Assembly: GCF_006345805.1 (NCBI RefSeq)
Contig: NC_043006.1
Coordinates: forward strand, 5,642,001 to 5,706,000
DNA from: Octopus sinensis
Taxonomy: Eukaryota
Reading direction: 5' to 3'
DNA: 64,000 nt
The notes under the pieces were generated by a model. That model was not told where the DNA came from. It searched no databases and was given only the letters and a program-made list of their open reading frames with translations. Position numbers and translations under genes: made by a program. Below are positions 19,424 through 53,133 of the stretch, in pieces. The number at the start of each line of letters is the position of its first letter. Position 1 is the stretch's first letter.

Positions 19424-19832
19424 ACATCAAAGTGGTTGTTCCATGTTACTACTAGTTTAACCCCAGGTAGATCTTCCACCAGCTGGCTATTGGTGCAGTA
19501 CTGCACCCTATGTGTGTGTGTATATATATATATATATAAAATACAAAATGGGACAAGAACGCAAAACATCCAGATAGACGATACAAAAAACACGGACGGG
19601 TCATTCGAAGCCTTTAATCTTCAGTCAAGAACCGGATCATCTTCGCAATTTCAACTGATTAACCTTGAGATTGCTCCAATCTGGCCAGCCCCAAGGAAAA
19701 ACTAAGCTAAGAACATTAGATTCCTTGGAAAAAAGGCTTCAAATGTATATGAAACAAGGACGGAAAAATGGACGATGTTACACGAATATAAATACAAAAA
19801 TAATACAAAAAAATAATAATAATAATAACAGG

Positions 19833-19876
<44 letters not shown>

Positions 19877-20470
19877 GATATTGCTAGCTGGGTAGCAAAC
19901 CCCTACCATCCTCTGGCAGACAACAGGATCACGAGTCTGACTCAGTTTCAAGCTGGTTGAGTTAGTCTCAGGATCCTGTTGTCTGTTAAAGGATGATAGA
20001 GGTGTGCACCCCCTGCTAACAATATATATGTATATACAGCATGCAGTGCTGCACTGATAACCAGCTGGCAGAAGATCTGCCTAGGGTTAAACTAGTAGTA
20101 ATGTGGAACAGCCACTTTGATGTGACAATTAACTTGTTAGTATAGTTATTACTCTGATTTCTTTTTGAGATTATGCAAAGTCAGTGACTGAAGGTCACTT
20201 TGTTTACAATATATTGCTGGCTGGAGCGGACCCTAACTATTGCTCTGGTGACCAGGTACTCGTAATGGAAGATGAGCCAACCACCTGAAAACTGAGTCAG
20301 TCTCGTGGTCTTGTTGTTTGCTAGAGGATGGTAGGAGTTCACTCTCCCTGCTAGCAATCTATATGTATATACAGGGTGCAGATTTGCCTGGGGCTAAACT
20401 GGAACAGCCGCTTTGATGTGGCAATTAACTTTACTTGTTAGTATAGTTACTGCTTTGATCTCTTCATGAG
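19424..20470. mobile_element. Composite inverted plus tandem repeat, Penelope pseudo-LTR-like
   Basis: 19424-19509 and 19880-19945 are inverted against 19957-20123; 20292-20470 is a direct repeat of the right arm. Confidence 0.7.
19538..19832. mobile_element. Unclassified TA-embedded interspersed repeat
   Basis: AATACAAAATGGGACAAGAACGCAAAAC...; reverse copies at 34925-35078 and 43262-43398, all flanked by (TA)n. Confidence 0.75.
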
Positions 20471-20533
20471 ATTTTGCGACTAGCTGTTTTGCTTATATAT
20501 ATATATATATATATATATCTATATATATATAGT

Positions 20534-20899
20534 AGGTGCAGGAGTGGCTGTGTGGTAAGAAGCTTGCTTCCAAACCACATAGTCCTGGGTTCAGTCCCAC
20601 TGCATGGCACCTTGAGCAAGTGTCTTCTATAGCCTCAGGCCAGCCAAACTCTTGTGAGTAGATTTGGTAGACAGAAGCTGAAAGAAGCCCGTCGTATGTA
20701 TACGTATTTCTGTGTCTGTGTTTGTCCTCCCACCATCGCTTGACACCAATTTTGATGTGTTTACTTCCCTGTAACTTAGCGGTTCAGCAAAATAGACCAA
20801 TAGAATAAGTACTAAGCTTACAAAGAATAAGTCCTGGGGTTGATTTGTTCGACTAAAGGCGGTGCTCCAGTATGGCCACAGTCAAAGAACTGAAACAAG
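20534..20899 (+). mobile_element. CORE-like SINE
   Basis: Head AGGTGCAGGAGTGGCTGTGTGG through the shared tail. Confidence 0.9.
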
Positions 20900-21042
20900 C
20901 ATATATCTATAATGGCTAATAAAACAAATGGTTTACACCTGTTGTTGAGTGTCCCACCCATGAGGAATTGATGGTAGATGTGTCGAAACATTATCTACAA
21001 TGGTAGATAATGAATTCTCGTATATTCCGTCTTCCGTCTGCC

Positions 21043-21077
<35 letters not shown>

Positions 21078-21089
21078 CGTGTGTGTATA

Positions 21090-21391
21090 TCACCGTGACC
21101 GACCAGGCTATCAGATGATGCTACACATCGCTGGTCACAATACGCTTTGCATTGTTTTAGCCTTCAAATGAGGCCACCCCGCTGGCTAAGTGAGCAGGCC
21201 AACAGAAGAAAGAGTGAGAGAAAGCTGTGGTGAAAGAGTACAGCAGGGATCGCCACCACCCCCTGCCAGAGCCTCGTGAAGATTTCAGGTGTTTTTGCTC
21301 AATAAACACTCACAATGCCTGGTCCGGGAATCGAAACCGCGATCCTATGACCATGAGTCCGCTGCCCAAACCACTGGGCCATTGCGCCTCC
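21090..21391 (-). mobile_element. tRNA-derived SINE, head as 4495, alternative tail C
   Basis: Tail CACCGTGACCGACCAGGCTATCAGATG...; also at 42960, 49437 and 55071. Confidence 0.85.
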
Positions 21392-21894
21392 ACACACATA
21401 TATATATACTTATAGTATAAACTTATTTCATCACATACATAGAAGAAGCTTGGCTCTCAAACAAATGCTACATTACACAATAGTTCTATAGTTTTATTAG
21501 GTTTGTTTATGTGCATTAGTATGCCAAGATGTCTGTTTTTCTAACTTGCAAAAGAACTACCATGGTCAATCAGCCATGCGTATTGGTCAGTAAACCCTTT
21601 GGTAATAATTCTTAATAAAATGACATTATAGGACATAAAAATATAAATACAAAAACTATGGAAAGATGTGAAGTTATGTTTCCAAAGTAGGTTGGAAAAT
21701 ATTCTTCAATTATAGCCTATTGAGAAAGAGTCAGGGTTAGCTGAAGGGTCATAGTTTTAACCTGATTTTCTCCTGTCAGGATTTGGGATTAGAATCCCTC
21801 ATTTTTGAGCAAGGCTAGATATGTCTTGTCTATAGTAAAAGAATTCAAGAACAAAAAGACTATTATATATCTGGTTGTTATTTTATTGACAGAA

Positions 21895-22150
21895 TATATA
21901 TATATATACATGTGTGTGTGTGTGTGTGTATATGTTTGCGTGTTTGTGTTTATCCCACCAACATTGCTTGACAACCAATGCTGGGATTTTTACATCCCCA
22001 TAACTTAGCAGTTCAGCTAAAGATAATGATAGAATAATAAATACTAGGCTTACAAAGAATAAGTCCTGGGGTCGGTTTGCTCGACTAAAGGTGGTGCTCC
22101 AGCATGGCCACAGTCAAATGACTGAAACAAGTAAAAGAAAAGAGAAAGAG
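21895..22150 (+). mobile_element. CORE-like SINE, 3' half only
   Basis: Begins in the TA/TG tract and ends with the shared tail. Confidence 0.82.
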
Positions 22151-22670
22151 AGAATCCGTAAAACATTATGAAAATGCTTTGGTAGTATTTGTTTCAGTTC
22201 TTCAATTTCTGAGTTCAATCTCAACTAACATCACCTTTGCCTTTTATCTTTCTGGGATTAATAAAATAAAATACCAGTCAAGTATAAGAATTAATGGTAT
22301 CAACTAATCCCTTCCCTTCAGTACTGCTGGCCTTATACCTAAATCGGAAACCATTATATACCTGGTTCAGTTCCTATGGTAATCCTTTTATACTCTCTTC
22401 TTTGTTATGAATAATGATTTCTTGTATAGCTAGAGAGCCAGTAATTGAGGCCCAAGGATGTAATTGATTTTATTAATACTTATTTAATTGATTTCAATGG
22501 CATAAAAAGCAAAGAAGATCCAAGTGTGTGAACCCAGTTAAGAGGATTGAGACAATCTATGCGTTAGACAGGTTCTCTTGCATCTCGTTTGATCTACATT
22601 CATCTTCATGGTTATAAAATAGTTAAGGCATATAGATATATCAGAACTACAAGAAGAGATTGGTTGAAGT

Positions 22671-22991
22671 CATCATCATCATTATCGTTTAGCCTCCGCT
22701 TTCCATGCTAGCATGGGTTGGACGGTTCAACTGGGGTCTGGGGAGCCAGAAGGCTGCATCAGGCCCAGTCTGATCTGGCAGTGTTTCTACGACTGGATGC
22801 CTTTCCTAATGCCAACCACTTCGTGAATGTAGTGGGTGCTTTTTACGTGCCACCCGCACAGGTGCCAGACGGAGCTGGCAAACAGCCACGAACGGATGGT
22901 GCTTTTTACGTGCCACCGGCATAGGGGCCAGGTGAGACTGGCAACGGCCACGATCGGATGGTGCTTTTTACGTGCCACCGACACGGGGGCC
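22671..22991 (-). mobile_element. Meta-like (GAT)n-tailed retroposon
   Basis: (CAT)n end and GGTGCTTTTTACGTGCCAC repeats. Confidence 0.87.
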
Positions 22992-23049
22992 GGTGGAACT
23001 GAATAATGGTTATGCTACGAAGTATTAAATCAGAATTATCAGTTATTTA

Positions 23050-23249
23050 TGTTCTGTACGAATACTTTTTTTCAGCCCTAAATATTTATGATTGAATATA
23101 AATTCATTATTTACTATAATTTATTAGTTTCTTTTGCATATTCTTAGTTTATGCATGTGTATGCAAATATAGTATTGGTATATCCCATTTATGTTCATTA
23201 GAAATTAAATAAAGAATTTTGACATGTACGAATATTTTTTTCCCCCCAC

Positions 23250-23252
<3 letters not shown>
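23050..23252. mobile_element. Solo end of a Tc1-like element (IR/DR type)
   Basis: Ends CCCCCCACTG; TGTACGAATAYTTTTTT occurs twice (about 23055 and 23225). Confidence 0.5.
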
Positions 23253-23288
<36 letters not shown>

Positions 23289-23289
<1 letters not shown>

Positions 23290-23442
23290 CCAGAGTAAAC
23301 ACATAAATGTGAAACAAGGTGGAAAAAAGAGTACTCAAATACCAGAGGTACAGTAATATGCTTTATTTAAAGTCCAAACAACGGGAACGTGAAACTCCGA
23401 GTAACAGCTTTTGTTAAATTTCTGCTGCTTTTAAATAAAGTG
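23289..23442. mobile_element. TA-embedded element, deleted sibling of 33927-34152
   Basis: Same left end (GAGTAAACACATAAATGTGAAACAAGG) and right end (AATAAAGTG); keeps ACGGGAACGT-GAAACTCCGAGTA-ACAG. Confidence 0.85.
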
Positions 23443-24892
23443 TATATATATATATAAAAATTATATGTACAACATTTAAAGCATATAAATTATGCATAAA
23501 ATAGTTAAGACAAATTATATATAAAAGAGAAAAGATATGAAATAGTTAAGGCATACAAAAGTTACTGTAAACGAAATCTGCACCACTTTGTCTTCAATGA
23601 TAGTCAACTACTTTTTTGTGGATTTAAAAATAAGAATAAGTATCTCCCAGCAAAATTTAATTATGCCTATATATTACTAGGTCTCTGATGTAATCCTATA
23701 TGAAGTTAATGTCATGTAAGCAAGTTTGTTAAAGGCAAACACTTGTTTAACATGTGTGTATAGACATAGTATAAAGATATATATATTTTAACAGAAAGCT
23801 ATCTGTAGCTGAGATGTGTTGGTTTCAGCAACTTCTCAGATCTGACAGGACATAAATAAATAATGTTATAATTTAAATTAGGAAGCAAAGCAACTGAAAT
23901 AACAGACACTTGCTTCAACTTTGCTATGTTAACTTCACATTTAACCAACCACCACCTGACCAAACTGAATACAAATGATTCATAAGGTTAATTTTAAACT
24001 ACAATTTAACCTAGTTTAAACTTTTCATATCATTGTTATCCCTGATTAGTTTCTAAAAGAGAATATTAATGTCTCTGCTTAGAAATATCAAAAGCTGGGC
24101 GTTTTTATTTTACCTATCATTTATTTGGTTGGTAAAAACTCAATGAAGGAATTAGTTTTGACACTGTAGTTGATGTTGTTGACCTACTTAGAAATTACCA
24201 TTTCTCTCTTTTTTTTTTTATATGTTTAAATATTTTCGTTAATGGAGATGTTTATTATTTGTTAATTGTAATTAAAATGGGCCAAAGCTGGCAGCATCAT
24301 TAACACACTGGATAAACTACTTAGTGGTATTTCATGTCTCTATGTTCTGAGTTCAAATTCTGCTGAAGTTGACATTACCTTTCACCAATGAAATAAATAC
24401 CAGTAAATCATTGGAGAATCAATGTAACTGACTAGACCCCCACCCACACTCTGCTAACATTTCAGCCCTTGTGTCTGTAGTAGAAAGGATTACTAACTAA
24501 TCATGTGAGTATATGGGTTCATTCTGCCATTCCTTAATAGCCCTTTTTGTAATTTTGTACCTGAAGCAGGGATACACTTTTATCATATTCTTCCACAGAA
24601 GCCACTTTTGTTGCTGAATCTGTTACATTAAACAATTAAGTGAAACTGATAAAGTTTTTTATTAGTCTTAGAAACAATTGTCCAAAATTGTTGATAGTAT
24701 AACAAGGTTGATAATTCAAAATGGGGAGGTCTTAAAGTTTAAACCCCAGTGGCATTATGTTATTTACTTTTATTGCCATCCTTTAGGCTTCATGTATTTT
24801 TGGTAAATCAGGTTATTGAGGGCTAAATTAACATCTCTTGAATCGGTTAACCTTTTTAGAATCGAGTCAACTTCACTAGATATTTACAATGT

Positions 24893-25034
24893 AGGCGTAG
24901 GAGTGGCTGTGTGGTACATAGCTTGCTTACCAACCACATGGTTCCAGGTTCAGTTCCACTGTGTGACACCTTGGGCAAGTGTCTTCTACTATGGCCTTGG
25001 ACCAACTAAAGCCTTGTGAGTGGATTTGGTAGAC
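24893..25034 (+). mobile_element. CORE-like SINE, 5' portion
   Basis: Head and CCTTGGGCAAGTG motif, then truncated. Confidence 0.85.
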
Positions 25035-26069
25035 ATTTGATTTTTTGATGTTGATGTAATTGACTCAATAGGTCTCCTCAAGCACCTAATGTCTGGAAAA
25101 TTTAACTTTCAATACTAGTAACATAATTATAATGGGTGATTGCTAGAAATACCTGGAATAATGGTGTTGGCGATCAAAGGATAAATCAAAGAAAGCAATC
25201 AGTTCTATAATTTAGAAGGTTCTGAAGACTTAGTCGTAAACTATTAAAGAATCCACTTTAAACTTGATATGTCTTCATTGATAATGTTAAGCAATGCAGC
25301 TACCATTTCTTTCTAACTAGTATTGAACTAAAACTATGGCAAATAGAACAAGCTTTCTTGAGAAACACCTAAAAATCATCACCACCATTCTTTCGGAAAC
25401 ACATTTTCCCTGCTGCCACTTGTCTCATTAGTTAGGTGCAACATGCATCCTCTCACATATTCCTTGGCTTTTCACTTCCACAATTACTCTCCTCTCCTCA
25501 TCCATTTATTGTACAGATCCATAGTGATATGGTTGTCTTTTCTGTAAGCAATACTTGACCCCATGTGCGTGTTCTTTGGGCCAGCAGTACTTCTCTCTCC
25601 TGCCTCCCTATTCTTTGTATAAAACAGGTGAAACTAGTACTGTACTACTGAGCCATTGATATTGACTTGAAGTATGGTGTATATAATCGTAACCCATAAT
25701 TCCATTTAATTTTATGCTATTACTATTTTATTTTTAATTGGTATTTTCTCTCCAAGGAATCAGGTCAAGTAAAATCTATTTCAAGCACTTTTAAGAATAA
25801 GAATTTATTATGAATAACACCCTCATCAATAACATCTTTATGTGCTTCAGAAATTAAATCTAATTGTTTTGACTCAATGGCTATAAAGAGATTTGATTAC
25901 TTCTTTCATAGGTCTAGTGGTGTAGCAGATGTTGTCTCTGTACTCCACACAGTCAACTAGTGTGTAACAGTGGACAGTTTAGTCTTAGACAACACTGGAG
26001 TACAACAAATTTCAATGTTGAAGCAGTGAATTGCTCCATAAAAAAGAAAAAAAAAGCTGCCTCCATTTT

Positions 26070-26839
26070 ATGACTAAATATAAAGTTCAACTGAGATAGA
26101 GTTGTTATCTCTTCTCCAAATGTATTCCACTTTCTCCGTAGCATTTGTCTGAATACAAAATAAAAAGTAGATGCCATTAGGAAATGAGAGATATATTAGA
26201 GAAGCAGATTTGACTGAGACTACTTTAATTGCTAGCACCTTCAAGCACTTAATAGGGAAAAAAGAACCTTTTTCAGTCTCTGTCATTTTCTATACTACTG
26301 ACTGTTATATAAAAATGATATATTTCAAAGAAATTATTCAACTGTTGTTAATTTTCATTTCTGTCATATATTGTTCTATTGATCTCACTTTGGTGCTTCC
26401 TGCATTAAATTTGTCTTGCCTGACTCCCAGATTCTACTGAATAAGAATTAAGACAAATATCTTGGGACTCCGTTGAGAAATGCTGAAGGGAAATAAAACA
26501 ATGCCAGTTTTGTCCTCTTTGAATCTACTTCGTCATCATCGTATGATTTATTTTTGTTTTTGAAGGAAGTTGTGTCAGAAGAGACTATCTTAAGCAAAAA
26601 GAATGGACTCTCTTTATTTCACACCTACACATTGGAAACTGAAAATAGATGTTCTTCAATTATCTATAGGCGTAGGAGTGGCTGTGTGGTAAGTAGCTTG
26701 CTTACCAACCACATGGTTCCGGGTTCAGTCCCACTGCGTGGCACCTTGGGCAAGTGTCTTCTACTATAGCCTTGGGCCAACCAAAGCCTTGTGAGTGGAT
26801 TTGGTAGAAGGAAACTGAAAGAAGCCCATCATATATATG

Positions 26840-26870
<31 letters not shown>

Positions 26871-27490
26871 GTGTGTGTGTGTGTGTGTGTGTTTGTATGT
26901 GTTTGTCCCCCCAACATCGCATGACAACCGATGCTGGTGTGTTTACGTCCCTGTAACTTAGCGGTTTGGCAAAAGAGACCGATAGAATAAGTACTAAGCT
27001 TACTAAGAATAAGTCCTGGAGTCGATTTGCTCAACTAAAGGTGGTGCTCCAGCATGGCTGCAGTCAAATGACTGAAACAAATAAAAGAGTAAAGAGTATG
27101 ATATAAGCAAATCATTCTCAAAGACAAGCATGTCTGTTCTTAGAAGAAGAATCTCCATCATTTTACACCACAAAACAATGTTGGTAAAACTTAACATTTG
27201 TGATATTGTTCCTGATTATTTTTTTGTCTCTACGAACTTACTCTGTAATATTACAGTGTATCCACCCAACTAATAAGTACAGTCTTCTAAAACATTAATG
27301 AAAAATCAATACTGGAAATTGATTTCTACCCGAAACAATTGTTTTTGTCCAGTATTTGTTCTAATATATCTCTCATTTCCTAATGGCATCTACTTTTTAT
27401 TTTGTATTCAGACAAATGCTATGGAGAAAGACGAATACATTTGGAGAAGAGATAACAACTCTATCTCAGTTGAACTTTATATTTAGTCAT
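26070..27490. repeat. 131-bp inverted repeat pair (26070-26200 and 27360-27490)
   Basis: Arms are reverse complements with only a few mismatches. Confidence 0.88.
26668..27097 (+). mobile_element. CORE-like SINE, full length
   Basis: Head, CORE-like motif, TA/TG tract, tail. Confidence 0.92.
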
Positions 27491-27752
27491 TACAGCTAAA
27501 GCCATGCTGGAGCTCTACCAAACGGACTAGTTAACCCAGTTTGTAGTTACTTTTCCGAAATATCATCTCAAATATCCCTAGAGAGCTAGAAGTATTTGAA
27601 ATGCTCCAACATATTACATCTTCACAACCTGTAATTTAATATCCATATATTAGCCCTTACGATTGTAGTCCCTCATAGACCTTCAACAGGCTATCATTTT
27701 TTCTTCCAAAATGTTTAATCAGTTTGCTTCTTTCACATAGAGACAGATTAGA

Positions 27753-28261
27753 ATCATCATCATCATCATCGTTTAATGTCCGCTTTCCATGCTAGCATGG
27801 GTTGGACAGTTCAACTGGGGTTTGGGAAGCCAGAAGGCTGCATCAGGCCCAGTCTGATCTGGCAATGTTTCTACGGCTGGATGTCCTTCCTAACGCCAAC
27901 CACTCCATGAGTGTAGTGGGTGCTTTTTACGTGCCACCCGCACAGGTGCCAGACGGGGCTGGCAAACGGCCACGGACGGATGGTGCTTTTTATGTGCCAC
28001 CGACACGGGGGCCAGGCAAGGCTGGCAACGGCCATGATCGGATGGTGCCTTTTACGTGCCACTGGCACAGAGGCCAGTTGGGGTGGCGCTGGGGGCCAGG
28101 CAAGGCTGGCAACGGCCACGATCGGATGGTGCCTTTTACGTGCCACTGGCACAGAGGCCAGTTGGGGTGGCGCTGGGGGCCAGGCAAGGCTGGCAACGGC
28201 CACGATCGGATGGTGCTTTTTACGTGCCACCTGCACGGAGGCCAGTCGGGGCAGCACTGGC
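27753..28261 (-). mobile_element. Meta-like (GAT)n-tailed retroposon with expanded 5' repeats
   Basis: Near-identical internal repeats at about 28010-28230. Confidence 0.88.
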
Positions 28262-32002: not shown

Positions 32003-32039
<37 letters not shown>

Positions 32040-33869: not shown

Positions 33870-33928
<59 letters not shown>

Positions 33929-34030
33929 GGAGTAAACACATAAATGTGAAACAAGGTGGAAAAAAGAGTACTCAAATACCAGTGGTAGAGTAATATGCTT
34001 TATTTTAAGCAGCAGAAAATTCAACAAAAT

Positions 34031-34068
34031 CTGTTACTCTGAGTTTCTCGTTGCCGTTCATCAGACAG
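34031..34068 (-). ncRNA. Minimal type I hammerhead ribozyme motif
   Basis: Minus strand CTGT-CTGATGA-ACG-GCAA-CGA-GAAA-CTC-A-GAG-TA-ACAG; stem I CTGT/ACAG; GUA site; stem II base mismatched (A-A). Confidence 0.8.
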
Positions 34069-34080
34069 TTTTTGCTAGAA

Positions 34081-34117
34081 TGTCTGATGAACGGCAACGA
34101 GAAACTCAGAGTAACAG
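34081..34117 (+). ncRNA. Minimal type I hammerhead ribozyme motif (inverted twin)
   Basis: TGT-CTGATGA-ACGGCAACGA-GAAA-CTCAGAG-TA-ACAG. Confidence 0.78.
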
Positions 34118-34884
34118 ATTTTGTTGAATTTTCTGCTGCTTAAAATAAAGTGTATATATATATATACATATATATACACGACAGGCTTCTTTCAGTTTCC
34201 GTCTACCAAATCCACTCACAAGGCTTTGGTTGGTTCGAGGCTATAGTAGAAGACACTTGCCCAAGGTGCCACACAGTGAGAATGAACCCAGAACTATGTG
34301 GTTGGTAAGCAAGCTACTTACCACACAGCCACTCCTGCACCTATAATTTAGCCTTTAGTTTTCACTGTTGCTGCAGATTATGAACATGAAATAGTATACT
34401 TCTGTTGAAATGAGTTCAAATATTGACCCTAGGTTTTATTACTTCAATCTAGTTTTAAAATTGACAGATGTATTGTTGTCTAGTTTCAAGTCAGTGCAAT
34501 TCAGGAATTTTATATCTAGAAAATTTGAACTAAACATATAGCGATATCATCATCCTCATTTAGTGTCCCATGAGTTGGACAGTTTGACTAGAGCTGGCAA
34601 GCTGGTTCCGGTCTGATTTGGCATGGTTTCTATGCCTGAATTTCTTTCCTAATGCCAACCACTTTACAGTGTGTGCTGGGTGCTTTTTATGTGGCACTAG
34701 AACAGGTGATTTTTGCATTGCATTGGCTTGGGTGTTTATTATGCAGACTGGTACAGGTGCATTTTTCATGGACCAATACAGGTGTTTTTCATGTGAATTA
34801 GCACAAGGGAGCTTGCAAGGCAAAAACCTCTTCAGATTGGAGAAGAGTCTAATAACGAGACAACATATGTGTGAGTATGTATTA

Positions 34885-34926
<42 letters not shown>

Positions 34927-35302: not shown

Positions 35303-35303
35303 T

Positions 35304-35390
<87 letters not shown>

Positions 35391-36335: not shown

Positions 36336-36344
36336 TTTGTTATA

Positions 36345-37560: not shown

Positions 37561-40504
37561 TGAGTGTAGTGGGTGCTTTTTACGTGCCACCAGTACAGGT
37601 GCCAGGCGAGGCTGGCAACGGCCACGATCGGTTGGTGCCTTTTACGTGCCACCAGCACGGAGTCCAGTCGAGGTGGCGCTGACATCTTCACGTTCGGATG
37701 GTGCTTTTTACGTGCCACTGGCACTGGTATCCGTTAGTATAATTGATATCACAAGTTACTTGCGATGACTAAGTAACAGAAAGTTTATGTTTTTGCTGAA
37801 AAGCCTTCAAGATAACGAGAATACATCAAGAGAGAGAGAGTAAAAGTTATTAGTCATCAAAAAGAAAAAAAAATAAATGTAATATTCCTTTAGTTGCTTA
37901 ATGGTCTAGTCATTAAATGTGTAACATGAACTCATTTCCACATTAGAATTTGCCCTGCCTAAAAAGCAGTATTAAAGCAGGTATTGTCAAGTATTTGTAT
38001 CATACAGTTGTGGTGGTCAAGTGATATTTCAAGGAAATGACTAACCAAAGATAGTGTTTTGATGCCTTTTTTTATTTTTTTATGAAATCATGTCATACCA
38101 AAAATATTTTGTAAAAAAATACAAAAATGGCGACACTGGTTATGACCTCCATTTTATGAGTTTATCTCGGTAATTAATATTATTTGCAAGTGAGAGACTT
38201 TTCTGATGTTAAAAAGAGCAACTGAAATGACCCTCATTCTTTATTGGCCAACACCCAAGTGATAAGATTGAACAATAATCATAACTAAATGCTATCTCAG
38301 CTGAGGAAAGTCAGACATCAGGTTTAGTATAAAAGCATACAACACTCAATTGTTTCATTGGATTATGATTAGAGAAGTGTATTATCAGTAATTGCATTTA
38401 TACCTCATATCTTTAATGAGCAGATAACTACGAAGCAGGTAAAACAGGTAAAAGTCAATGGTCATTAAAAAAATGTTGCTCAATAAACTGAGACACCATT
38501 TAATTAATTTGTTATATTTCTTGAGAAATGTGACATAAAACCAAGAGAGCAAAGAAAAATTAATTGCATCATCGTTTAACGTCCGCTTTCCATGCTAGCA
38601 TGGGTTGGACGTATGACTGAGGGCTGGCTGCACCAGGCTTCAATCTTGATCTGGCAGAGTTTCTACAGCTGGATGCCCTTCCTAGTGCCAAACGTTATAT
38701 CAGTAGAAAAGGCGTAGGTAGAAACTCTATAAGATGCACCAAGTGTAAGCTATGGACACATAAGAGGTGCAGCAATATCAAAGGAAGGCAAACTGGGAAG
38801 ATAGTTTTTGAATGTGGCAGATGCTCAGGAGCAATAAACACTGAAAATGTGCAGAGAACGACTTCCGCCACATTCATCATCATCATCATCATCGTTTAAC
38901 GTCCGTTCTCCATGCTAGCATGGGTTGGACGGTTCGACCGGGGATCTGGGAAGCCAGAAGGCTGCACCACGCTCCGGTCTTATCTGGCAAAGTTTCTACA
39001 GCTGGATGCCCTTCCTAACGCCAACCACTCCATGAGTGTAGTGGGTGCTTTTTACGTGCCACCAGTACAGGTGCCAGGCGAGGCTGGCAACGGCCACGAT
39101 CGGTTGGTGCCTTTTACGTGCACCAGCACGGAGTCCAGTCGAGGTGGCGCTGACATCTTCACGTTCGGATGGTGCTTTTTACGTGCCACTGGCACTGGTA
39201 TCCGTTAGTATAATTGATATCACAAGTTACTTGCGATGACTAAGTAACAGAAAGTTTATGTTTTTGCTGAAAAGCCTTCAAGATAACGAGAATACATCAA
39301 GAGAGAGAGAGTAAAAGTTATTAGTCATCAAAAAGAAAAAAAAATAAATGTAATATTCCTTTAGTTGCTTAATGGTCTAGTCATTAAATGTGTAACATGA
39401 ACTCATTTCCACATTAGAATTTGCCCTGCCTAAAAAGCAGTATTAAAGCAGGTATTGTCAAGTATTTGTATCATACAGTTGTGGTGGTCAAGTGGTATTT
39501 CAAGGAAATGACTAACCAAAGATAGTGTTTTGATGCCTTTTTTTAATTTTTTTATGAAATCATGTCATACCAAAAATATTTTGTAAAAAAATACAAAAAT
39601 GGCGACACTGGTTATGACCTCCATTTTATGAGTTTATCTCGGTAATTAATATTATTTGCAAGTGAGAGACTTTTCTGATGTTAAAAAGAGCAACTGAAAT
39701 GACCCTCATTCTTTATTGGCCAACACCCAAGTGATAAGATTGAACAATAATCATAACTAAATGCTATCTCAGCTGAGGAAAGTCAGACATCAGGTTTAGT
39801 ATAAAAGCATACAACACTCAATTGTTTCATTGGATTATGATTAGAGAAGTGTATTATCAGTAATTGCATTTATACCTCATATCTTTAATGAGCAGATAAC
39901 TACGAAGCAGGTAAAACAGGTAAAAGTCAATGGTCATTAAAAAAATGTTGCTCAATAAACTGAGACACCATTTAATTAATTTGTTATATTTCTTGAGAAA
40001 TGTGACATAAAACCAAGAGAGCAAAGAAAAATTAATTGCATCATCGTTTAACGTCCGCTTTCCATGCTAGCATGGGTTGGACGTATGACTGAGGGCTGGC
40101 TGCACCAGGCTTCAATCTTGATCTGGCAGAGTTTCTACAGCTGGATGCCCTTCCTAGTGCCAAACGTTATATCAGTAGAAAAGGCGTAGGTAGAAACTCT
40201 ATAAGATGCACCAAGTGTAAGCTATGGACACATAAGAGGTGCAGCAATATCAAAGGAAGGCAAACTGGGAAGATAGTTTTTGAATGTGGCAGATGCTCAG
40301 GAGCAATAAACACTGAAAATGTGCAGAGAACGACTTCCGCCACATTCATCATCATCATCATCATCGTTTAACGTCCATTCTCCATGCTAGCATGGGTTGG
40401 ACGGTTCGACCGGGGATCTGGGAAGCCAGAAGGCTGCACCAGGCTCCGGTCTTATCTGGCAAAGTTTCTACAGCTGGATGCCCTTCCTAACGCCAACCAC
40501 TCCA
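37561..40504. repeat. Tandem duplication of a 1,472-bp unit (37561-39032 and 39033-40504)
   Basis: About 5-6 differences by eye; bounded by Meta-like elements at 37402-37727, 38875-39198 and 40346-40727. Confidence 0.95.
38699..38875 (+). mobile_element. RTE-type LINE fragment encoding a PHD-like zinc finger (second copy 40171-40347)
   Basis: My translation: ISRKGVGRNSIRCTKCKLWTHKRCSNIKGRQTGKIVFECGRC. Confidence 0.72.
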
Positions 40505-41154
40505 TGAGTGTAGTGGGTGCTTTTTACATGCCACCTGCACTGGTGCCAGGTGAGGCTGGCATCGGCCACGGTCGGATTGGTGCATTTTACGTGCCACCTG
40601 CACAGAAGCCAGTCGAGGCGGCACTGGCTTCGGCCACGATTTGGATGGTGTTTTTATGTGCCACTGACATGGAAGCCAGTTGAGGCAGCACTGGCAACGG
40701 CCACAGTTCGGATAGTGCTTTTTACGTACTATCACTATCCGAATCCAGGGAGAAAAACTTGCTTGACGAACTTTTGGGGTCAGATGGTGATGATTGTAGC
40801 AATTTTGAAGGATTAAATGTTTGAAACATATCTAAATAACAAAGTGTATGTGGTATGTTTAATTTTTTGTATTTTTATCAAAATTGGTAATCTTGGTTTA
40901 ACATATTTTGTAATACTCTTTATTAAAATTGATAATCTTAGTGAGAAATAAAAGGTTTTCTGTGGATTGTAAATTTTTAGATAATGGCAGTTCTATTACA
41001 TTATTAGTGTCGTATATTAATGTGAATTGTTTTAAATACAAGTACTTACAGCGGTAGTTACTGCACAGAGACTGTCGTCAGTATTAAATTAAGATTAGAC
41101 CTGGTTTTCTGTACAAATAGACCACAAGATGTAAAGTTCGCTTTTTGTTACTGT

Positions 41155-41228: not shown

Positions 41229-41235
41229 ATATATA

Positions 41236-41593: not shown

Positions 41594-41630
<37 letters not shown>

Positions 41631-43246: not shown

Positions 43247-43394
43247 ACACACACACATATATAGCCGAAATTGCTAAGATGATCCGGTTCCGACTGAAGA
43301 TTAGAGGCTTCGAGTGACCCGTCTGTTTTTTTGTGTCGTCTCTTTGTGTGTTTTTGCGTTCTTGTCCCACTTTGTAATTTATATTTTATATTTA

Positions 43395-43455
<61 letters not shown>

Positions 43456-44408: not shown

Positions 44409-44730
44409 GTAACATATATCTTCAATCCCAGAGCTACGATGTAGATCCCATTATATTCTATGAATATTAATGCTGCCATATAGTCAGGTCTATGGTAATC
44501 AATATTGCCAAATCATTAGGTTATCAGTTAATAATTTAACATTAGCTAAGTAACATATATCTGTAACATATCTTTAATTTCAGTACTATCATATAGATTT
44601 CAATAATGTTATTTGATGATTAATACAACCTTATATCAACTGTAGGTTAGCTGAGTAACATATATCTTCGATTTCAATTCTGTGATGTAGATTTCATAAT
44701 GTTGCTTCATGCTGCCATCTAGTTAGGTCA
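44409..44730. repeat. Degenerate direct repeats, about 3 copies
   Basis: GTAACATATATCT...TAGAT...ATGCTGCCAT recurs. Confidence 0.55.
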
Positions 44731-45644
44731 CCATTCAACATTAATAGAAGCGAGCAGTGTTTTCTCAAAGACCTCATACAATAACTTGAGCAGAATAAAG
44801 AATTCTGATTCTTATGTTGACCGTTCAGTGTTTATGCACTGTTGTCTCTAAGACTAGCATGAATAATCTGTTATAAGGATGTTCCAAATTTAATCTTGTT
44901 CTGTAAATAAAAGATAATAGCACTTTTAAGTTTTTCTCTATAGATTTTCTATGGAATTCAGAGCCAGCACTACAAGTTATGACCTCTTGTATACAAATAT
45001 GTCTGTGAAAACAATGTGATTGAAGATAGAAAAAAAATATAATGGGTGTATATACATATTTTAAAAGTTATTGCTCTTTCATCAGCACCACATCCAACCT
45101 GTCGACTATCTATGAATGCATTTCTTAAATACTTACTAAGCTTAGCAATTTAACACAACTGGATAGACCAATTTACATATTAAACACACTCTCGATAACT
45201 GGTATATATGTAAGCAATTAAAAGCTAGTTAGATATTAAATGATATTGCTGATGTTGTTAAGTATGTTATGTCAATTATTTCTGTTAAAATTAGGATAGA
45301 GTGGCTGAAAATGTAGAACACTAGGCTAAATTCCTTTCAAATTTTTAATTCATTCTGCTACAGTGAGTGTAGTTTTCGGTATGTTCTACATACTCTCTTG
45401 TTAGAGTTGGTGAAGCAACATACAAGTACTGGAGGTCATTTTAGTTAGTTTAGCATATTTTTAAAAAGTGTCCTAAAGATCACCATTCTGTTGGAATTCT
45501 TTGTCATATTGAATCATGAGAGAATAGCACAATAATATTCACTGTTCAACTAAGTCCTAAGCCATAAACATGAATCATGATCCTGCTTTATTTGTATTTA
45601 GAATTTGGCATAATATCGTACAAAGATGCATGTATTTCGAGTTC

Positions 45645-45882
45645 ATAAAAAAAGCACCGACCGATCGTGGCCGTTGCCAACCTCCTCTGGCCCCTGTGCC
45701 GGTGGCACATAAAAAGCACCCACTACACTCACGGAGTGGTTGGCATTAGGAAGGGCATCCAGCTGTAGAAACACTGCCAGATCAGACTGGAGCCTGGTGC
45801 AGCATCCATGGCTTACCAGACCCTGGTCGAACCGTCCAACCCATGCTAGCATGGAAAACAGACGTTAAACGATGATGATGAT
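45645..45882 (+). mobile_element. Meta-like (GAT)n-tailed retroposon
   Basis: Family motifs and GAT tail. Confidence 0.87.
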
Positions 45883-46328
45883 GTTCTATATGAAATAGAT
45901 TTAAAAAGAACTGGATCAAGAGGTATCGCCATTGATTTCAGATGTCCTTCCTCAAGTAACATAGCTATCTTGTGTGGAAACTCTTAGTCTTTCTATTTCA
46001 TGGAGAAATAAATTTGTAATTTAGAAATAAATCCTGCCAAATCAGGATAATTTATAATGCATAATACCAATGCTTTAGATTACTATTTTCTAAGTGAAAA
46101 CAATAGATTGAGTGAAATTTTAAAATGTTAATACCTGCAATGGTCAGCTTTAGTTTCATGTGTTACTGAAATATGTTCACATGTTCACTTTGTAATTATC
46201 AAGTTCTTAGCTGGATTCATGTGTGTGGTGCATTGGGTAAATGACTCACTTCAGGTGGACCAATACTTTGTTCATAGAATTTAGTCAAAGGAAACTATGT
46301 AAGTGCTATATATATATATAGATAGATA

Positions 46329-46546
46329 GATAGGTTTAAGAGACAGAACCATCTTCAAGCAACCCAATCAACATTGAACGACATTATCATGAAATGCACG
46401 TAGTCTATATAATTTAATATAGGATTCAGAATAAAAATTGTAGATGTTAGTTTTGATAAAATTTAATCTTATATATCTCTATCATAGATAATGTCATTCA
46501 ATGTTGATTGAGCTGCTTGAAGGTAATTCTGTCTCTTAAACCTATC
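46329..46546. repeat. 60-bp inverted repeat around a 98-bp AT-rich spacer, in TA context (MITE-like)
   Basis: 46329-46388 against 46487-46546. Confidence 0.8.
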
Positions 46547-46902
46547 GATATATGTATATAATACAGTAATTCATTTTAGTACCACTCAATTGAATTTCTC
46601 TCCCCTGTGGACCCAGAAATAACCTCCCTAATATTAATAATTATATATATATAATCATTGTACATCGTATTTTCCATGTCATGGGTTGAATGGTTTGACA
46701 GGATCCAATGGGTTGGAGGTCCACATCTTGCTCTAATGTCTTTTCTCATGGATTCCATGCTGGTGGGGGGGGGCTTCTCAAAACTAGCCACTTTCGAGTG
46801 TACTGAGTGCATTTAATTGTGGGGCCAGCGCAGTAGAGGTTGCCTTAACATCAACTATACTAAAGAGCCTTCTTAATCCCAGCATCACAACTGAAGTCAA
46901 TT

Positions 46903-47130
46903 ACCTATTTCTTTACTACCCACAAGAGGCTAAACACAGAGGGGACAAACAAGGACAGACAAAGTGATGAAGTCGATTACATCGACCCCAGTTCGTAACT
47001 GGTACTTATTTAATCGACCCCGAAAGGATGAAAGGCAAAGTCGACCTCGGCAGAATTTGAACTCAGAACGTAGCAGTAGACGAAATACTGCTAACCATTT
47101 CACCCGGCATGCTAACATTTCTGCCAGCTC
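46903..47130 (-). mobile_element. Nin/Deu-like SINE
   Basis: Family match. Confidence 0.88.
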
Positions 47131-47766
47131 AGGGTGTACTGAGGCTTTATCACAGTTCTCTGACTGTTTACAGCAGAGTTTTTTTTTTTTTTAAATTGAC
47201 AAAAATGGATAACTACTAAACTGAATAAATACCAGATTCAATATGTTTGCTTAAAAATCCTTGAAGGTAATAGCATCAAGTATGGTCACATTCCATTGAA
47301 AGAATTAAAAGCAAAATAAAATAAACACTAAACTCTGACTAGTAACATTTTTAGATCTGACACCTAAATGGTAAACTTCATGGTTTTAACCATCGTCATA
47401 GCAATAGAATAAAACCTTAGCAGTAGAGTTCAACTTGAAGAATTATTTTGCAAAGCATTCAGCTATTTTGATGAACTTATATTAAAAAACATTGTTCTGA
47501 TCAATCAAAACTCTTACATGTACGAATGATGGTGTTCCGACTGCAAAGAATATTTATGCTATTGATATTAATGGAGAACGGCAAGATGTGTTTGTGGTTA
47601 TAAAACAGAACTTGGCATGGCAACATTTGGCAACGCACCAACTCAATCGAAGTCTGCAGCTCTGTCAGTATAGAATACTATTTATCTTCAAACCTAAAAT
47701 GGAAACAGAGGAAAAATATATAAATGAAGAGTGTAGTATTAATAAAGCCCATACGTATGAGAAAGA

Positions 47767-47818
<52 letters not shown>

Positions 47819-49257
47819 GTGCATGTGTGTATATACATACATACACACGCACACATGCACACATTTTTGATTTGGTTTGCAAAATTCTTTATATGTGAAT
47901 TCGTATGTTGAAGCAAATCTTGTCTAGGGAGGGTCATTATGCCAATAAAAATTCAAATAAACACACACACTGGTTCAATACCACTTTATTTTACCAACTC
48001 AAAGTTTGCTTATACATTTTATTATTTAAATATGTGCATACATACATACATACATACATACGTACGTACGTACGAACGTATGTATGTATGTATATATATA
48101 TATATGTTGCCATGATAGATCGGTAGCCACTACACACATTTTTTTCTCTCCTTGTTTCTTTCTGTGTTCCTTTCTGTAGAAGAACATAGGCTCGAAATGC
48201 TAAAGATTTTTTCAATTCCCAAGCATTATACTAATACATCTGTTTGTTTTCTACACCACCTGTCTTCGTCTTTTGTTTTTTTCGTGAATTCTCTACATGC
48301 ATGCATACATACATACATACATATCAACCTAGTCTAATGTTTTTTTATTTAGAATTTTTACTAATTGTAAATAATAAAATGTATAAATCCGACTCGGTTG
48401 GAATTTCATTCATTAATAGATTCTATACACAAACTCATGTGTGTGTGTGTGTGTTGCTTTATATGTTGTAATACGTTGGTCTTTTAAAATAACCACACAA
48501 TCAATCATGTTAGTTGAAATTCTAATGAGTTATTCTGACAAATTTAGAGTTTCAAACGAGTAGGAAGTCTGGATTAATGAAGTGTTTGTTTTACTAATCT
48601 TCCTCAATCCTATAAAGATCCACAGGTACAACTACATGGTGACACACACACACACACACACACACACACAACACACACACACACACACACCCTTACTGAC
48701 TGTTTTTGAAGGGTAGTGTATAGATTAACATCATTTTGGTGTCCACTTATTTTATGCTTCCGTGGTTCAGATGGAATACTGTGAGGCAGATTTTCTGTGA
48801 CTCTTCTTACCTGTTTCAAAGCAAGGTAACATTTTCCTCACAGGGCTTGTTTTTTTTTGCGGGGAAGGTTAGAAATTAAAATGGTTTTATGATTGTTTCA
48901 CTCTTTTACGACTATCACATGATGTCAACACAAGGAGAGAAACATACACACACACACACACACAAGTAACAGGCTTCTTTCAGCTTTTGTCTACCAAAAT
49001 CCACTCATAAGGCATAGACTATAGTACAAGACACTTTCTCAAAGACCCATACAGTGAGACTGAACTCAAAACTACATGGTCAGGAAACAAACTTCATAAC
49101 TGCAAAAAAAAATTTAATAAAAAAGCCCCCCCCAAAAAATCATTTGCCTGACTTGTCAGAAAGCCATGAATGTCACCCACTCAGGGTGCCTTATAATTTG
49201 TCTTTCTGTTTAAATACGTTCACCAGTCTGTTCTTTAAAAAAATATTTTTCATCATA

Positions 49258-49555
49258 GGTGCAGGAGTAGCTGTGTGGTAAGTAGCTTGCTTACCAACCA
49301 CATGGTTCCGGGTTCAGTCCCACTGCATTGCACCTTGGGCAAGTGTCTTCTACTATAGCCTTGGGCCGATCAAAGTCTTGTGAGTGGATTTGGTAGACAG
49401 AAACTGAAAGAAGCCTGTCATGTATATATATATATATCACGTGATCACTTGACCGACCAGGCTATCAGATGTTGCTACACATCACTGATCACAATGCACT
49501 TTGCATTATTTTAGCCTTCGAATGACGCCACCCCACTGGCCAAGTGAGCAGGCCA

Positions 49556-49591
<36 letters not shown>

Positions 49592-49775
49592 TTATCCCCC
49601 TCAACATCGCTTGACAACCGATGCTGGTGTGTTTACATCCCTGTAACTTAGTGGTTTGGCAAAAGAGGCCGATAGAATAAGTACTAGGCATACAAAGAAT
49701 AAGTCCTGGGGTCGATTTGCGGTGCTCCAGCATGGCTGCAGTCAAATGACTGAAACAAGTAAAAGAGTAAAAGAA
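49258..49775 (+). mobile_element. CORE-like SINE with a tail-C fragment (49437-49556) in its TA tract
   Basis: Head, inserted fragment, tail. Confidence 0.88.
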
Positions 49776-50882
49776 TAAGATCAATAACAAGAAGAATTCA
49801 CCTAATTTTCGCAAACACTCAGACTGCATAGAGCTACAAGACTTCATTGCAAGAAATGGTATTTCATAAAAGCAAAGCAGATGTTCTGCATAGAATTCAG
49901 ATATCGTTTTCTATATGGCATTAGCAGCATCATAAAATGGTTATTGTCAAAAATCAACAACTTAAACATTTACTGCCGCTTCAAATAACTTTAGACTATG
50001 TGACATTCATGACTTACTCAATACAAGGAATATTTTTCCAATGAAAAATCACATTTGAAGTAAAAGGTATTAATTATTTTAACCACTGAGAGTTGATGGC
50101 AGATTGCCAATTATTGTAGAATGCTGCTTCTCTTTCCATTATAATCTTGTATAAGGCCAGCATATTGACCACAAAATAACATACTTTAGGGAATTTTTAG
50201 TTATTTAATGGAATAATATTGATTGTTAGCAGGAACAACTGACAGACTTCTTTCTCTATGATCAGGAATTATACTTCAAACAAAACACTGGACTTGAGTG
50301 AAAAGTAGGGAGTATTTAGATTCATCCATCTACATCCCAAGTTCAAATACTATTGGAGTCAACATTCATTTTTTTTCCTTCCAAACTAATTATTTGATCT
50401 ACAGAAGATTATTCAATTTAACCTCTCCCTTAAAATTGGTTACTGAATTAAATAAACTAATATTGTGAGTGTCTGTCAATCAATGATTGATGGTATGTGT
50501 GAAAGAAGTATTAATGCATGATCAGTGTGATCAATTTCTTAAAATTAGTTTTAAATTTACAAAGCAAATTTTGGGTTTACTAAAACTTCATTATTGACAA
50601 TTATATTTATAATTCAACATATCTAAAAGCCAGTTTACACACACATACATATATGAACTATACTGGGAATGCAACATGATATGATGGATTTTACGTATGA
50701 ATGTTATTTATGGATTACTGAAGAAGAATAACTAAGGAAGTATATATGGATTTAAAGACTCTCATCAAAAGTAGTAATTTTAATTTTTATTTTATATTTA
50801 AAAAAAAACACCATTTTACAATTTTACTCCAAATTTTTTTTAAAAAACTATCATTCGATATATTATACAACATTCATATTTA

Positions 50883-50974
50883 TATCTCTGAAGAGCAGCA
50901 GTGTTGTCTATAAATGCTTATCAATATAGGATTTCATTATAGGGACAACTCTTTTGTGAAACGATCGTAAGATG
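50883..50974 (+). ncRNA. Type I hammerhead ribozyme motif with long stem II
   Basis: ATCT-CTGAAGA-GCA...GTTGTC...GACAAC...TGT-GAAA-CGATCG-TA-AGAT; all core nucleotides present; palindromic stem III ACGATCGT. Confidence 0.75.
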
Positions 50975-51426
50975 CTTTAAATAATTAATTCAAAACTTTT
51001 AAACTATCAAATATTTGTACATTATATTTATATTTTTATATTTATTTATTTATATATATTTTTAATACAATAAGTTCTTTCACACGGGTACATCTTTATG
51101 ATGAGTTGGATATTAATTTCCTTATATTAATAATAATAATATATTATTAAAAAATATATGTATATATTGCTCATATTGAATATATAAATACTTTAATAGT
51201 ATTGATATTTTTATACAATAGAGCACATATAAATTCAGTACATAATATTCTTATTGAATATATTTACCTAGAGATTTATATATATTTATATATATATATT
51301 TATATATATAGTACTACTCTGACCAAATACACACATTTTGAGGTAGACTATGAAATTTGATGCATATATATTCGTGGTATTTGTATGTAATTGCAGCTTT
51401 GTGTTTCTTTTTCTGTGGGTATGTAT

Positions 51427-51835
51427 ACTCTTCTACTTGTTTCAGTCATTTGACTGCGGCCATGCTGGAGCACCGCCCTTGGTCGAGCAAATCAACCCCG
51501 GGACTTATTCTTTGTAAGCCTAGTACTTATCCTATCGGTCTCTTTTGCAGAACCGCTAAGTGACAGGGACGTAAACACACCCGCATCGGTTGTCAAGCAA
51601 TGCTAGGGAGACAAACACAAACACACACACACATACATACATACATATACATATATATATATATATACATATACAACAGGCTTCTTTCAGTTTCCGTCTA
51701 TCAAATCCACTCACAAGGCATTGGTCGGCCCGAGGCTATAGTAGAAGACACTTGCCCAAGTTGCCACGCAGTGGGACTGAACCCGGAACCATGTGGTTGG
51801 TTAGCAAGCTACTTACCACACAGCCACTCCTGCGT
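51427..51835 (-). mobile_element. CORE-like SINE, full length
   Basis: Family match. Confidence 0.92.
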
Positions 51836-52725
51836 ATGTCTCATTTTGCTCAGTATTCTTTACTGATGAAGGAAGAGTTATCAAACTAATCCAGGAATTA
51901 ATCAATCCAAACCTATCTGAATCATTTTATGAATTTCTGTCAGTCTACTTCTTACTTTCAACATGTGTGTAATCATAAAGTGATAATTGAGAGTGGTTGG
52001 ACGATTTAGCATCTATTTTCAGCATATAGGTATGGTCCACTCTGTGCCCTTAATTATAACTGTATTTTATATTATTATAAATCACACACACACACACACA
52101 CGGATAGATAGAGATATAGCGGATTCTCCCATTGTTAATGACAGATGAGCATTCCACAAATTGTTGCTGAACAACCTCCTACACAGATGGTTTGTTTGTT
52201 TGCAGTGATCAAATGAATGTGCTGTACATTAGCCCACTCTGTCAACTCAACATTCCTTATGCAGGTCCACGATGGGACACATGTCAGATACTGAAATGAT
52301 CACTGGTGTTTTGCTCAAAGCACAAAGCAAGAAAGGAAACCATGATCCTATAAGTGTGAGGCTAACATCCTAAACACTAGGGGACTTTCGTTTTATATCT
52401 GTTTTTTTTCCAATGCCAGTATGGGTTTGACAAATACATATTACTGGAGCATTGTTCTATTACTAGATGTTCTTCATGCAGCTAGCCCTTACCTCATTTT
52501 ACTTTTTATTTTCTTAAGCAAGGGAGTTTTCCTTTCCACTCATCTTCAAAAGAGCCAGTCGATGATTTTTTGATGGGGAATTGTTAACATACAGCATTGT
52601 TAGTAGCTTAGTATATTTTCATGCAAAGTGCAGAATGTAAACATTTGCACAGGCACACACACACACACACACACAGGTATCTGTATGTGTGTGTATGTTT
52701 ATATATATATATATATATACATACA

Positions 52726-53133
52726 GCAAGAAGGAAATAGAGGGGATCCAGAGGTGCTATGCATCAACTGTTAGACATTATATTATGTCTATTTATTTTA
52801 AACAATTATGAGAATATATATACATGTGTAAAGATTGTGTTCTACATATATAAAGTACCAGAAACTTCTAGAATAGAGAAAGAAGAGCAGTTTCTTACAG
52901 CTGTTTCTGTCAAGAGGTCGCAGTACCCCACATGTCATTTCCATCTTTTCAGTGGGGTGAACCTCTTGGCAGAAACAGCTGTAAGAAACTGTTCTTTCTC
53001 TATTTTAGAAATTACTGGTACTTTATATATGTAAAACACAATCTTTACACATGTATATATATTCTCATAATTGTTTAAAATAGACATAATATAATGTCTA
53101 GCTGTTAATGCATCCCCTCCATTTTCTTCCTGC
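52726..53133. mobile_element. Long inverted repeat (arms about 155-190 bp) carrying hammerhead 3' halves
   Basis: 52759-52918 against 52961-53113; GAAACAGCTGTA at 52972-52983 and its complement at 52896-52907. Confidence 0.8.

Follow-up and report, generated by a model that had tools for sequence, protein, structure and literature searches.

Within a stretch of 64,000 nucleotides of the Octopus sinensis genome (contig NC_043006.1, positions 5,642,001 to 5,706,000; hereafter the window), one intron of about 44 kb in a class I myosin gene contains members of five repeat families, here called A to E. Penelope-type elements (Penelope-like elements, PLEs) are known to carry self-cutting hammerhead RNAs, and the five families are best explained in these terms. 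In the reading we favor, to which we give a probability of about 0.85, they are unrelated to one another; A, D and E each represent the truncated 3' end of a coding PLE family, C is likely to do so as well, B is likely a retrozyme-type derivative, and in every family there is a predicted type I hammerhead whose cutting would require the pairing of two copies by way of a palindromic stem III. Earlier work has described PLE hammerheads of octopus that have a palindromic stem III and occur at (TA)n. What may be new, as forms predicted from sequence, are the long stem II of families C and E and a U at core position 6 (U6) that characterizes family D as a whole. No report of a long stem II or of U6 in animal PLE hammerheads, nor of permuted hammerheads in Naiad elements, was found in the literature compared, with Lunse 2017, the 2017 Terminon paper, the supplements of a 2026 preprint and one supplementary file of PMC4209133 lying outside that comparison. 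The comparisons with published systems made below draw on portions of the papers cited.

Five repeat families and their links to coding bodies

The motif common to the families, GAAA followed by a palindrome and UH, occurs 31 times in the window against 13.3 +/- 3.7 expected, which is weak evidence alone; the palindrome of family B is absent from the output of this loose scan, and none of the 102 Rfam matches of the window at E<=5 is a hammerhead. When CTGANGA was required within 32 nt, two matches were left, the two arms of the family A element, against 0.04 expected. Since the loose motif by itself proves little, the case rests on the repeat families. In searches of the 2.72-Gb genome, with 40 candidates scored per search, every motif was found to lie in its own multi-copy dispersed repeat family. 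The five distinct families of the original prediction, which was made from the letters of the window, are thus real, and their palindromes are where it had placed them (Table 1). The three inverted repeats it described are those of A (75-nt arms, 97% identity), B and C, and the arrangement expected of pseudo-long terminal repeats (pLTRs) was observed: tandem or inverted order, an optional tail and 5' truncation. Its remark that the motif comes with or without CTGANGA needs correction, as E has CTGAAGA at 50888 and family C has a core about 99 nt upstream. In the window itself, the full motif is kept only by E and by one arm of A. A (TA)n tract was found within 40 nt of the 3'-end probe in 27/28 copies of A, 15/27 of C, 19/30 of D, 8/21 of E and 1/24 of B; this is a crude measure with a background of 3-11%, and the E and B probes are not at true ends. 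The proposed enrichment at (TA)n is therefore seen in A, C, D and E, all above background, and not in B.

The longer copies of family A continue into a GIY-YIG fragment, and in 19 of 20 loci from a GIY-YIG search (two pairs of which are arms of single insertions) the A end lies 0.7-1.2 kb downstream of the endonuclease (EN) on the same strand. In locus L212 the order is inverted pLTR, 703-codon open frame, 3' untranslated region (UTR) and pLTR, and locus L190 has A tandems of 246 nt. The open reading frames (ORFs) share about 95% identity and are open in part. A Pfam search assigned no family to the protein. Its translations contain DKT, RWK, a CxCX5C linker that some copies keep unmutated and others do not, and CxxC and CxH in the EN, with no CCHH; these are the marks given for the Hydra clade (PMC8557442). 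Judged by eye, the protein resembles that of Hydra-1_Obim, which prefers (TA)n and whose hammerhead has a palindromic stem III of 9 nt (Craig et al. 2021, PMC8557442). From the ORF linkage and the clade marks we conclude, on sequence grounds, that family A is the end of a young coding Hydra-clade PLE. Two short peptides of the A ORF are absent from the supplement of PMC8557442 in the portion compared, so A is not the octopus family presented there. Four contig sets, whose kind was guessed, gave no usable ends, strand or splice joints when compared with family A.

Copies of family D run upstream through a C-rich UTR into a reverse transcriptase (RT) and a zinc-linker GIY-YIG, and locus L252 has the order RT, EN, UTR and D. 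The D hammerhead lies 3' of GIY-YIG on the same strand in 13/20 endonuclease loci, mostly 645-778 nt away. A link of D to an abundant Neptune family of 781 amino acids was rejected as shared (TA)n targeting, the body of D being another ORF. Neptune-type PLEs with open frames of 775-781 codons and an upstream ORF were seen in many near-identical copies (L176-L178, L180, L181).

The end of family E follows GIY-YIG in 2/5 extended loci. Locus L314 contains an inverted pLTR, a GIY-YIG over the Pfam cut-off, a UTR and the hammerhead; its EN is 34% like that of family A, and L313 has a matching EN tail. Three other identities were considered for E and rejected. It is no exon with a splice donor, being a repeat with at least 40 copies at 95-100%. 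It is not the pLTR of the Neptune-type ORF at L211, whose family ends in its own U3-A8 hammerhead; E lies near such an ORF in only 1/25 loci, as a separate insertion. Nor is it the 3' end of a Tx1-like long interspersed nuclear element (LINE), for the LINE is an insertion in the E UTR, flanked by target duplications, and one such site is empty. These Tx1-like LINEs (APE, RT, zf-RVT) occur at one fixed site in the E 3' UTR (L312, L313, L314 twice, L371 and L378), with 12-14-bp target duplications and differing 5' ends; L315 has the empty site, and 5/20 examined tail junctions of such LINEs fall in E. Tx1 elements that target other transposons are known, with no PLE target among those in the portion of PMC4494074 compared.

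Because A, D and E follow RT/GIY-YIG ORFs, they are wrongly called non-autonomous. The multi-family system of the original prediction therefore keeps its PLE origin and its palindromic stem III and loses, for these three families, its non-autonomy. Adjacency to PLE ORFs, proposed as a check, was found for A, D and E as given above. For family C, Hydra-type fragments were found at 3/28 of the first loci, one of them a direct inverted junction (L216), and C-like copies have up to 400 nt of upstream sequence in common; a PLE origin of C is likely.

Family B has another layout, with partial tandems and inversions of a 335-nt monomer in arrays of 1-2 units. No PLE ORF was found in 29/30 B loci, and the remaining locus has one on the wrong side. 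B shows a feature of non-LTR retrozymes, namely tandem repetition, here in short arrays, of a monomer close to 300 nt that contains a single type I hammerhead and lacks an ORF. The published non-LTR retrozymes (PMC7229834; Li et al. 2026 preprint, 10.64898/2026.07.22.740005) resemble B in having a tandem monomer of about 330 nt, a type I hammerhead and no ORF, and also a 6-bp stem I, 4-bp stem II and 6-nt loop 2. B differs from them in its arrays of 1-2 units, frequent inversions, 11-nt palindromic stem III and age, the family being old. Both window copies are broken, and exact full cores number 2 genome-wide; at the family level the hammerhead combines CTGARGA, one additional U and C17 with stems I and II of 6 and 4 bp and a palindrome of 11 nt. 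Family B is thus likely a non-coding derivative of retrozyme type, and the sole retrozyme-like member of the five.

Table 1. Elements, predicted hammerheads and host exon, in window coordinates; the last column gives the site of the GAAA-palindrome-UH motif or palindrome
Feature	Position	Strand	Detail	Motif site
Family B, direct and inverted pieces of 335-nt monomer	19424..20477	.	whole monomer 20031-20365; retrozyme-like, old	
Family B hammerhead remnant	20260..20308	+	stem III kept; core and stem II mutated in window copy	20291-20301
Older family A subfamily copy	23290..23443	.	5' core decayed	23391-23403
Family A, inverted pair of 3' pLTR ends	33927..34155	.	66-nt tail at left; between (TA)n tracts; young Hydra-clade PLE	
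Family A hammerhead, full motif	34026..34073	-	core 34064-34058, stem III 34044-34036, A17 34035	34047-34035 (-)
Family A hammerhead, gene strand	34081..34116	+	stem I reduced to 3 bp by inversion	34101-34113 (+)
Family D, 3' end of zinc-linker (Neptune/Nematis-like) PLE	48106..48295	+	core 48174-48180 with U6	48174-48201
Family E, 5'-truncated 3' UTR and pLTR of PLE with Hydra-like GIY-YIG	50651..51276	+	ends at (TA)n	
Family E hammerhead, long stem II	50883..50974	+	stem I 50883-50887/50970-50974, core 50888-50894, stem II 50895-50957 (63 nt), GAAA 50958, stem III 50961-50968, A17 50969	50958-50969
Family C, 5'-truncated end and inverted duplicate (likely PLE)	52724..53135	.	GAAA, palindrome and UH in both orientations	52907-52896 (-), 52972-52983 (+)
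Host class I myosin exon closing the intron	53881..54088	+	upstream exon near 9500-9600	

Predicted hammerhead cores and stem II

At the family level, A, B, C and E have all the parts of a type I hammerhead (CUGANGA, GAAA, A15.1-U16.1, H17 and stems I to III), and G is nearly absent from position 17 (0/69 in A, 0/30 in B, 0/27 in E, 1/80 in D, 0/21 in C-like copies). The term minimal, used in the original prediction for all of them, fits D only; A, B, C and E can pair 2-4 bp of stem III as monomers. Among 69 distinct copies of family A, the core is CTGATGA in 43, with C4 in most of the others (about a third of copies); 60 have ACTCAGAGT as stem III, all have A17, and the base of stem II is A.A in 47, A.G in 16 and A-U in 6. 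The hammerhead of the minus arm in the window has a 2-bp stem II with A.A at its base and an 8-bp stem I with one mismatch; that of the plus arm is predicted by folding to be locked in a 75-bp hairpin. The published Hydra-clade PLE hammerheads resemble these, with (TA)n targets, an inverted 5'-truncated copy, a 9-nt palindromic stem III and extra nucleotides at the base of stem II (PMC8557442). Hydra-2_aMil shares with family A its 4-bp stem I, A17 and, save for the middle base, its stem III (PMC8557442); family A differs from the published examples in a stem II of only 2 bp with A.A or A.G at its base.

In family E the core half CTGAAGA lies 63 nt 5' of GAAA and is retained in 26/27 copies. 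The insert between the halves folds as a rod that closes at the core, with z -4.7 in L124 and -2.0 in the window copy. Changes on both sides were found in 9/15 pairs of stem II, and 16 covarying cells were counted against 7.2 in shuffled alignments (0/500 shuffles) in a set of 24 copies, of which 20 were hand-picked for diversity from 100 matches listed and 4 were others. The window copy of family C keeps the right half of a stem II of about 99 nt and has no 5' core; it is cut at its 5' side and duplicated in inverted orientation, which accounts for the missing first core half. In 12/31 C copies that half is present 77-103 nt upstream, mostly at 99, and complete C cores have a stem II of about 97-99 nt. 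Among C-like loci found with the 5' half, 21/30 have the full core with its halves 96-101 nt apart, and 19 of these 21 fold closed at the core (mean z -3.7). That C might be a type II or III hammerhead was rejected, there being no downstream core.

Long second stems are abundant in the genome. A pattern with a spacer of 40-70 nt between the core halves gave 11,697 matches against 9 for its reverse, and one of 71-101 nt gave 9,452 against 268; together the exact long-spacer matches come to about 21,000 against 277 in reversed controls, counts that overlap slightly and in which inverted pairs are counted twice. The short-spacer pattern with a 9-nt stem III gave 16,019 against 909 in the control. 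A relaxed scan of 0.96 Mb of sampled loci found 190 matches with spacers from 8 to >100 nt, against 1 and 3 in shuffles. Of 30 long-spacer sequences, 17 were alignable as a sister long-stem-II family in which 6/11 pairs of stem II and one pair of stem III covary (31 cells against 13.1 shuffled), and Hydra-type endonuclease fragments lie upstream in several long-spacer loci. The conserved cores and covarying stems on which the original prediction had staked itself are thus present, cores being conserved at the family level and stem II pairs covarying in E and in the sister family. A tandem array of long-stem-II hammerheads with a period of about 600 bp (C1:18221705-18225984) is a candidate array of retrozyme type. 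Other PLE ends of the genome have compensated or variant cores (U3-A8, A3-U8, C4), at L146 ~2210, L176 ~4650, L220, L296; L222 ~3073; and L216 ~4229.

Such stems fall outside the published descriptors, which allow stem II only to near 25 nt. The 2014 descriptor (PMC4209133) has a stem II of 3-7 bp with a loop of <=10 nt, requires CUGANGA and allows a 2-nt palindrome; the palindromes of A, B, C and E are too long for it at 8-11 nt, stem II of C and E is too long, and D fails on U6. The core search of 2021 used spacers of 7-17 nt (PMC8557442), and the metazoan examples listed in that paper have a short stem II, compared with 63-99 nt in C and E. There is a precedent in plants: PLE-X1_sMoe and PLE-X1_sTam have a stem II region of about 45-55 nt and are marked as deviating (Craig 2021, File S2). 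These are two predicted single examples from endonuclease-less elements, described in the portion compared without covariation or abundance.

In family D, position 6 is U in 83/85 copies, position 7 takes all four bases, and stem III is ACGT in 55/85. The exact D motif has 15,223 matches genome-wide against 0 in the control, with U6 in 99/100 among the genome matches listed. D departs from the CUGANGA of type I hammerheads; all its other positions and its stems fit. The original prediction had taken the window copy for a decayed case, and that copy is indeed decayed, lacking U16.1 and one pair of stem II, whereas the departure from CUGANGA is family-wide. A related PLE end with A6 is present in locus L216. 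The minimal hammerheads (min-HHR) of Cervera and De la Pena 2014 (PMC4209133) are of type I, lie in pLTRs, mostly as single truncated copies, and have a palindromic stem III, an extra nucleotide after A9 and G10.1-C11.1; D has their shape.

Predicted energies bear on the pairing of two copies. For E and for locus L181 the hammerhead dimer lies <=0.3 kcal/mol per strand from the best dimer fold, and the monomer hammerhead 2-3 kcal/mol above the best monomer fold.

Permuted motifs, host gene and other repeats

A permuted, hammerhead-like order was also seen, consisting of an upstream strand of stem II, the cleavage block, the GAAA block, and a strand of stem I followed by CTGANGA. The pattern has 403 matches genome-wide against 44 in the control (loci L388-L421, e.g. 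L396:1495-1582:-, L390, L410), and is absent from the window. Among 34 copies that belong to two or more diverged families, 22 have at least 4 pairs in stem I; in 21/34 the strand that precedes GAAA is paired to the upstream strand, and in only 2/34 to the strand that follows CUGANGA. Stem sequences differ between the families and pairing is retained. Compared by eye, one family, with a 52-nt motif, corresponds to the published 3' end of octopus Naiad elements, which is marked 'HHR_half_core'; Naiad elements are published as having no canonical hammerheads. To read these half cores as long-stem-II forms is unsupported for Naiad_Ovul, in which GAAA precedes CUGAUGA. The permuted motif, which is predicted, resembles type SGC (PMC10085705) and differs by its split block C.

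The host gene was identified from exons on the + strand, the two that bound the intron (Table 1) and one at 55860; the best solved-structure matches of the gene are myosin-Ib. An intronic setting in a myosin gene had been proposed and is borne out at the level of class I. The predicted cleavage triplets of C (52980-52986) and E (50966-50972) overlap a GTAAGA that resembles a 5' splice site, and introns that overlap PLE pLTRs are known. Probably the host transcript escapes, with little cutting of myosin pre-mRNA to be expected, because the window copies are mostly dead or single: the A plus arm is predicted to be locked, the copies of B, C and D are defective, and E lacks a partner in the window.

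Other repeats of the window are a 24-bp tandem array of 72 units (1-1734), a 184-bp tandem of a unit resembling a short interspersed nuclear element (SINE; 2799-4073) and a direct duplication with an offset of 1,472 bp (about 38200-40700). An abundant SINE-like repeat occupies 14 sites on the minus strand, e.g. 46929, 35125 and 12303. The Tx1-like LINE has a 3' end similar to the tail of this repeat and may be its partner.

Proposed mechanism, alternative explanations and implications

Known PLE biology suggests how such ends would arise. Insertion at (TA)n, 5' truncation and fold-back are established for PLEs (PMC8557442) and agree with the flanking sequence seen here; an RT-GIY-YIG protein would nick (TA)n and copy the RNA from its 3' end, and copying that often stops early or folds back would leave short and inverted ends. 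Between two hammerheads, in tandem or in separate RNAs, the palindromes would pair; cleavage would follow GUA, GUC or GUU and trim the precursor RNA, and the element's protein might assist. Dimer dependence is a published model (PMC4209133) with which the predicted energies of E and L181 agree, and PLE-linked variants with a short palindromic stem III reportedly cleave as dimers (Lunse, Weinberg, Breaker 2017, as cited in PMC6765202). A stem II of 60-100 nt would be a tolerated rod that stabilizes the hammerhead fold, since this stem is directed away from the catalytic junction and the contact between loops 1 and 2 is seemingly unused.

Several observations count against this account. The hammerhead dimers of B, C and D are predicted to lie 5-7 kcal/mol above the best fold, and the gaps for these three families overall span 5-9 kcal/mol. 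Stem I is weak in C, with 3-4 bp in only 13/21 C-like copies; no ORF occurs within 1.5 kb of 30 C-like loci, and the link of C to PLEs comes down to one direct junction, at L216. Part of the covariation signal in E stems from one divergent copy, L363, and such counts overstate independence, as the copies are related and can beat a shuffle control without structure. Pattern matches are unverified as ribozymes; of the first 12 with spacers of 71-101 nt, 6 fold with z <= -3.4 and 5 have a stem I of at least 3 bp. D may be a dead ribozyme that is carried along, because A6 mutants are less active (A6C was tested; PMC3088659). In an Anolis PLE the ribozyme needs protein, and cleavage is dispensable for insertion in vitro (PMC11167929).

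We weighed three other explanations of the families. It is extremely improbable that the motifs are chance palindromes in AT-rich repeats with a coincidental, distant CTGANGA. The 13 loose matches expected per window and the absence of an Rfam hammerhead speak for chance, and individual matches may be of this kind; at the family level it is refuted by a 35- to 1,300-fold excess in the genome over reversed patterns, by the 190 matches against 1-3 in shuffles, and by spacings that are fixed within families whose stems covary. An improbable though more serious account is a single multi-family, non-autonomous system of ribozymes (retrozymes), spreading as small RNAs with PLE enzymes acting in trans. 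Family B, with its partial tandems of the 335-nt monomer, canonical-looking hammerhead and scarcity of PLE ORFs, would suit it, as would the short A copies with recurring ends, the pure 246-nt A tandems of locus L190 and the many D copies that start at one place; the 2026 preprint (10.64898/2026.07.22.740005) also derives animal retrozymes from PLE pLTRs, arguing that they are non-autonomous PLE derivatives. Against it, A, D and E continue into RT/GIY-YIG ORFs with variable 5' truncation, the A ORFs are partly open and nearly identical, and the D queries were biased toward copies sharing the 5' end of the window copy.

Somewhat unlikely, and the strongest of the three, is the view that the long-stem-II and U6 forms are catalytically dead relics, their hairpin being kept for binding or priming by the PLE protein and their core surviving by recent descent. 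Published PLE hammerheads cleave poorly (PMC4209133), catalytic mutants had no effect on insertion in vitro (PMC11167929), changes at A6 are harmful (PMC3088659), and stem I is weak in C. However, several families with unrelated stem II sequences retain both core halves, the G10.1 pair, the palindrome and a position 17 other than G, and other PLE ends of the genome show compensated cores (U3-A8, A3-U8); together these features point to selection on catalytic geometry. The reading of the five families as PLE ends, with one retrozyme-type derivative, carrying dimer-dependent hammerheads remains the one we prefer. A bolder extension, which we put forward tentatively and at less than even odds, is that octopus PLEs hold a large, active and overlooked radiation of hammerheads, comprising some ten thousand dimer-dependent ribozymes with a stem II of 40-100 nt, a working U6 family of 15,000 copies, and a pseudoknotted, permuted Naiad form with its break between A9 and G10.1.

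The young and partly intact ORFs of family A make the role of PLE hammerheads testable in a second clade, and family D is a natural test, in 15,000 copies, of the need for A6 in a dimer. If ribozymes with a stem II of 60-100 nt cleave, searches limited to near 25 nt have missed a class that is about as abundant here as the short forms, and the natural long inserts would be scaffolds for testing recognition by PLE proteins. If the wider radiation is real, a large part of the ribozymes in animal genomes has escaped notice because of descriptor limits, and PLE clades regarded as hammerhead-less would need to be re-examined.

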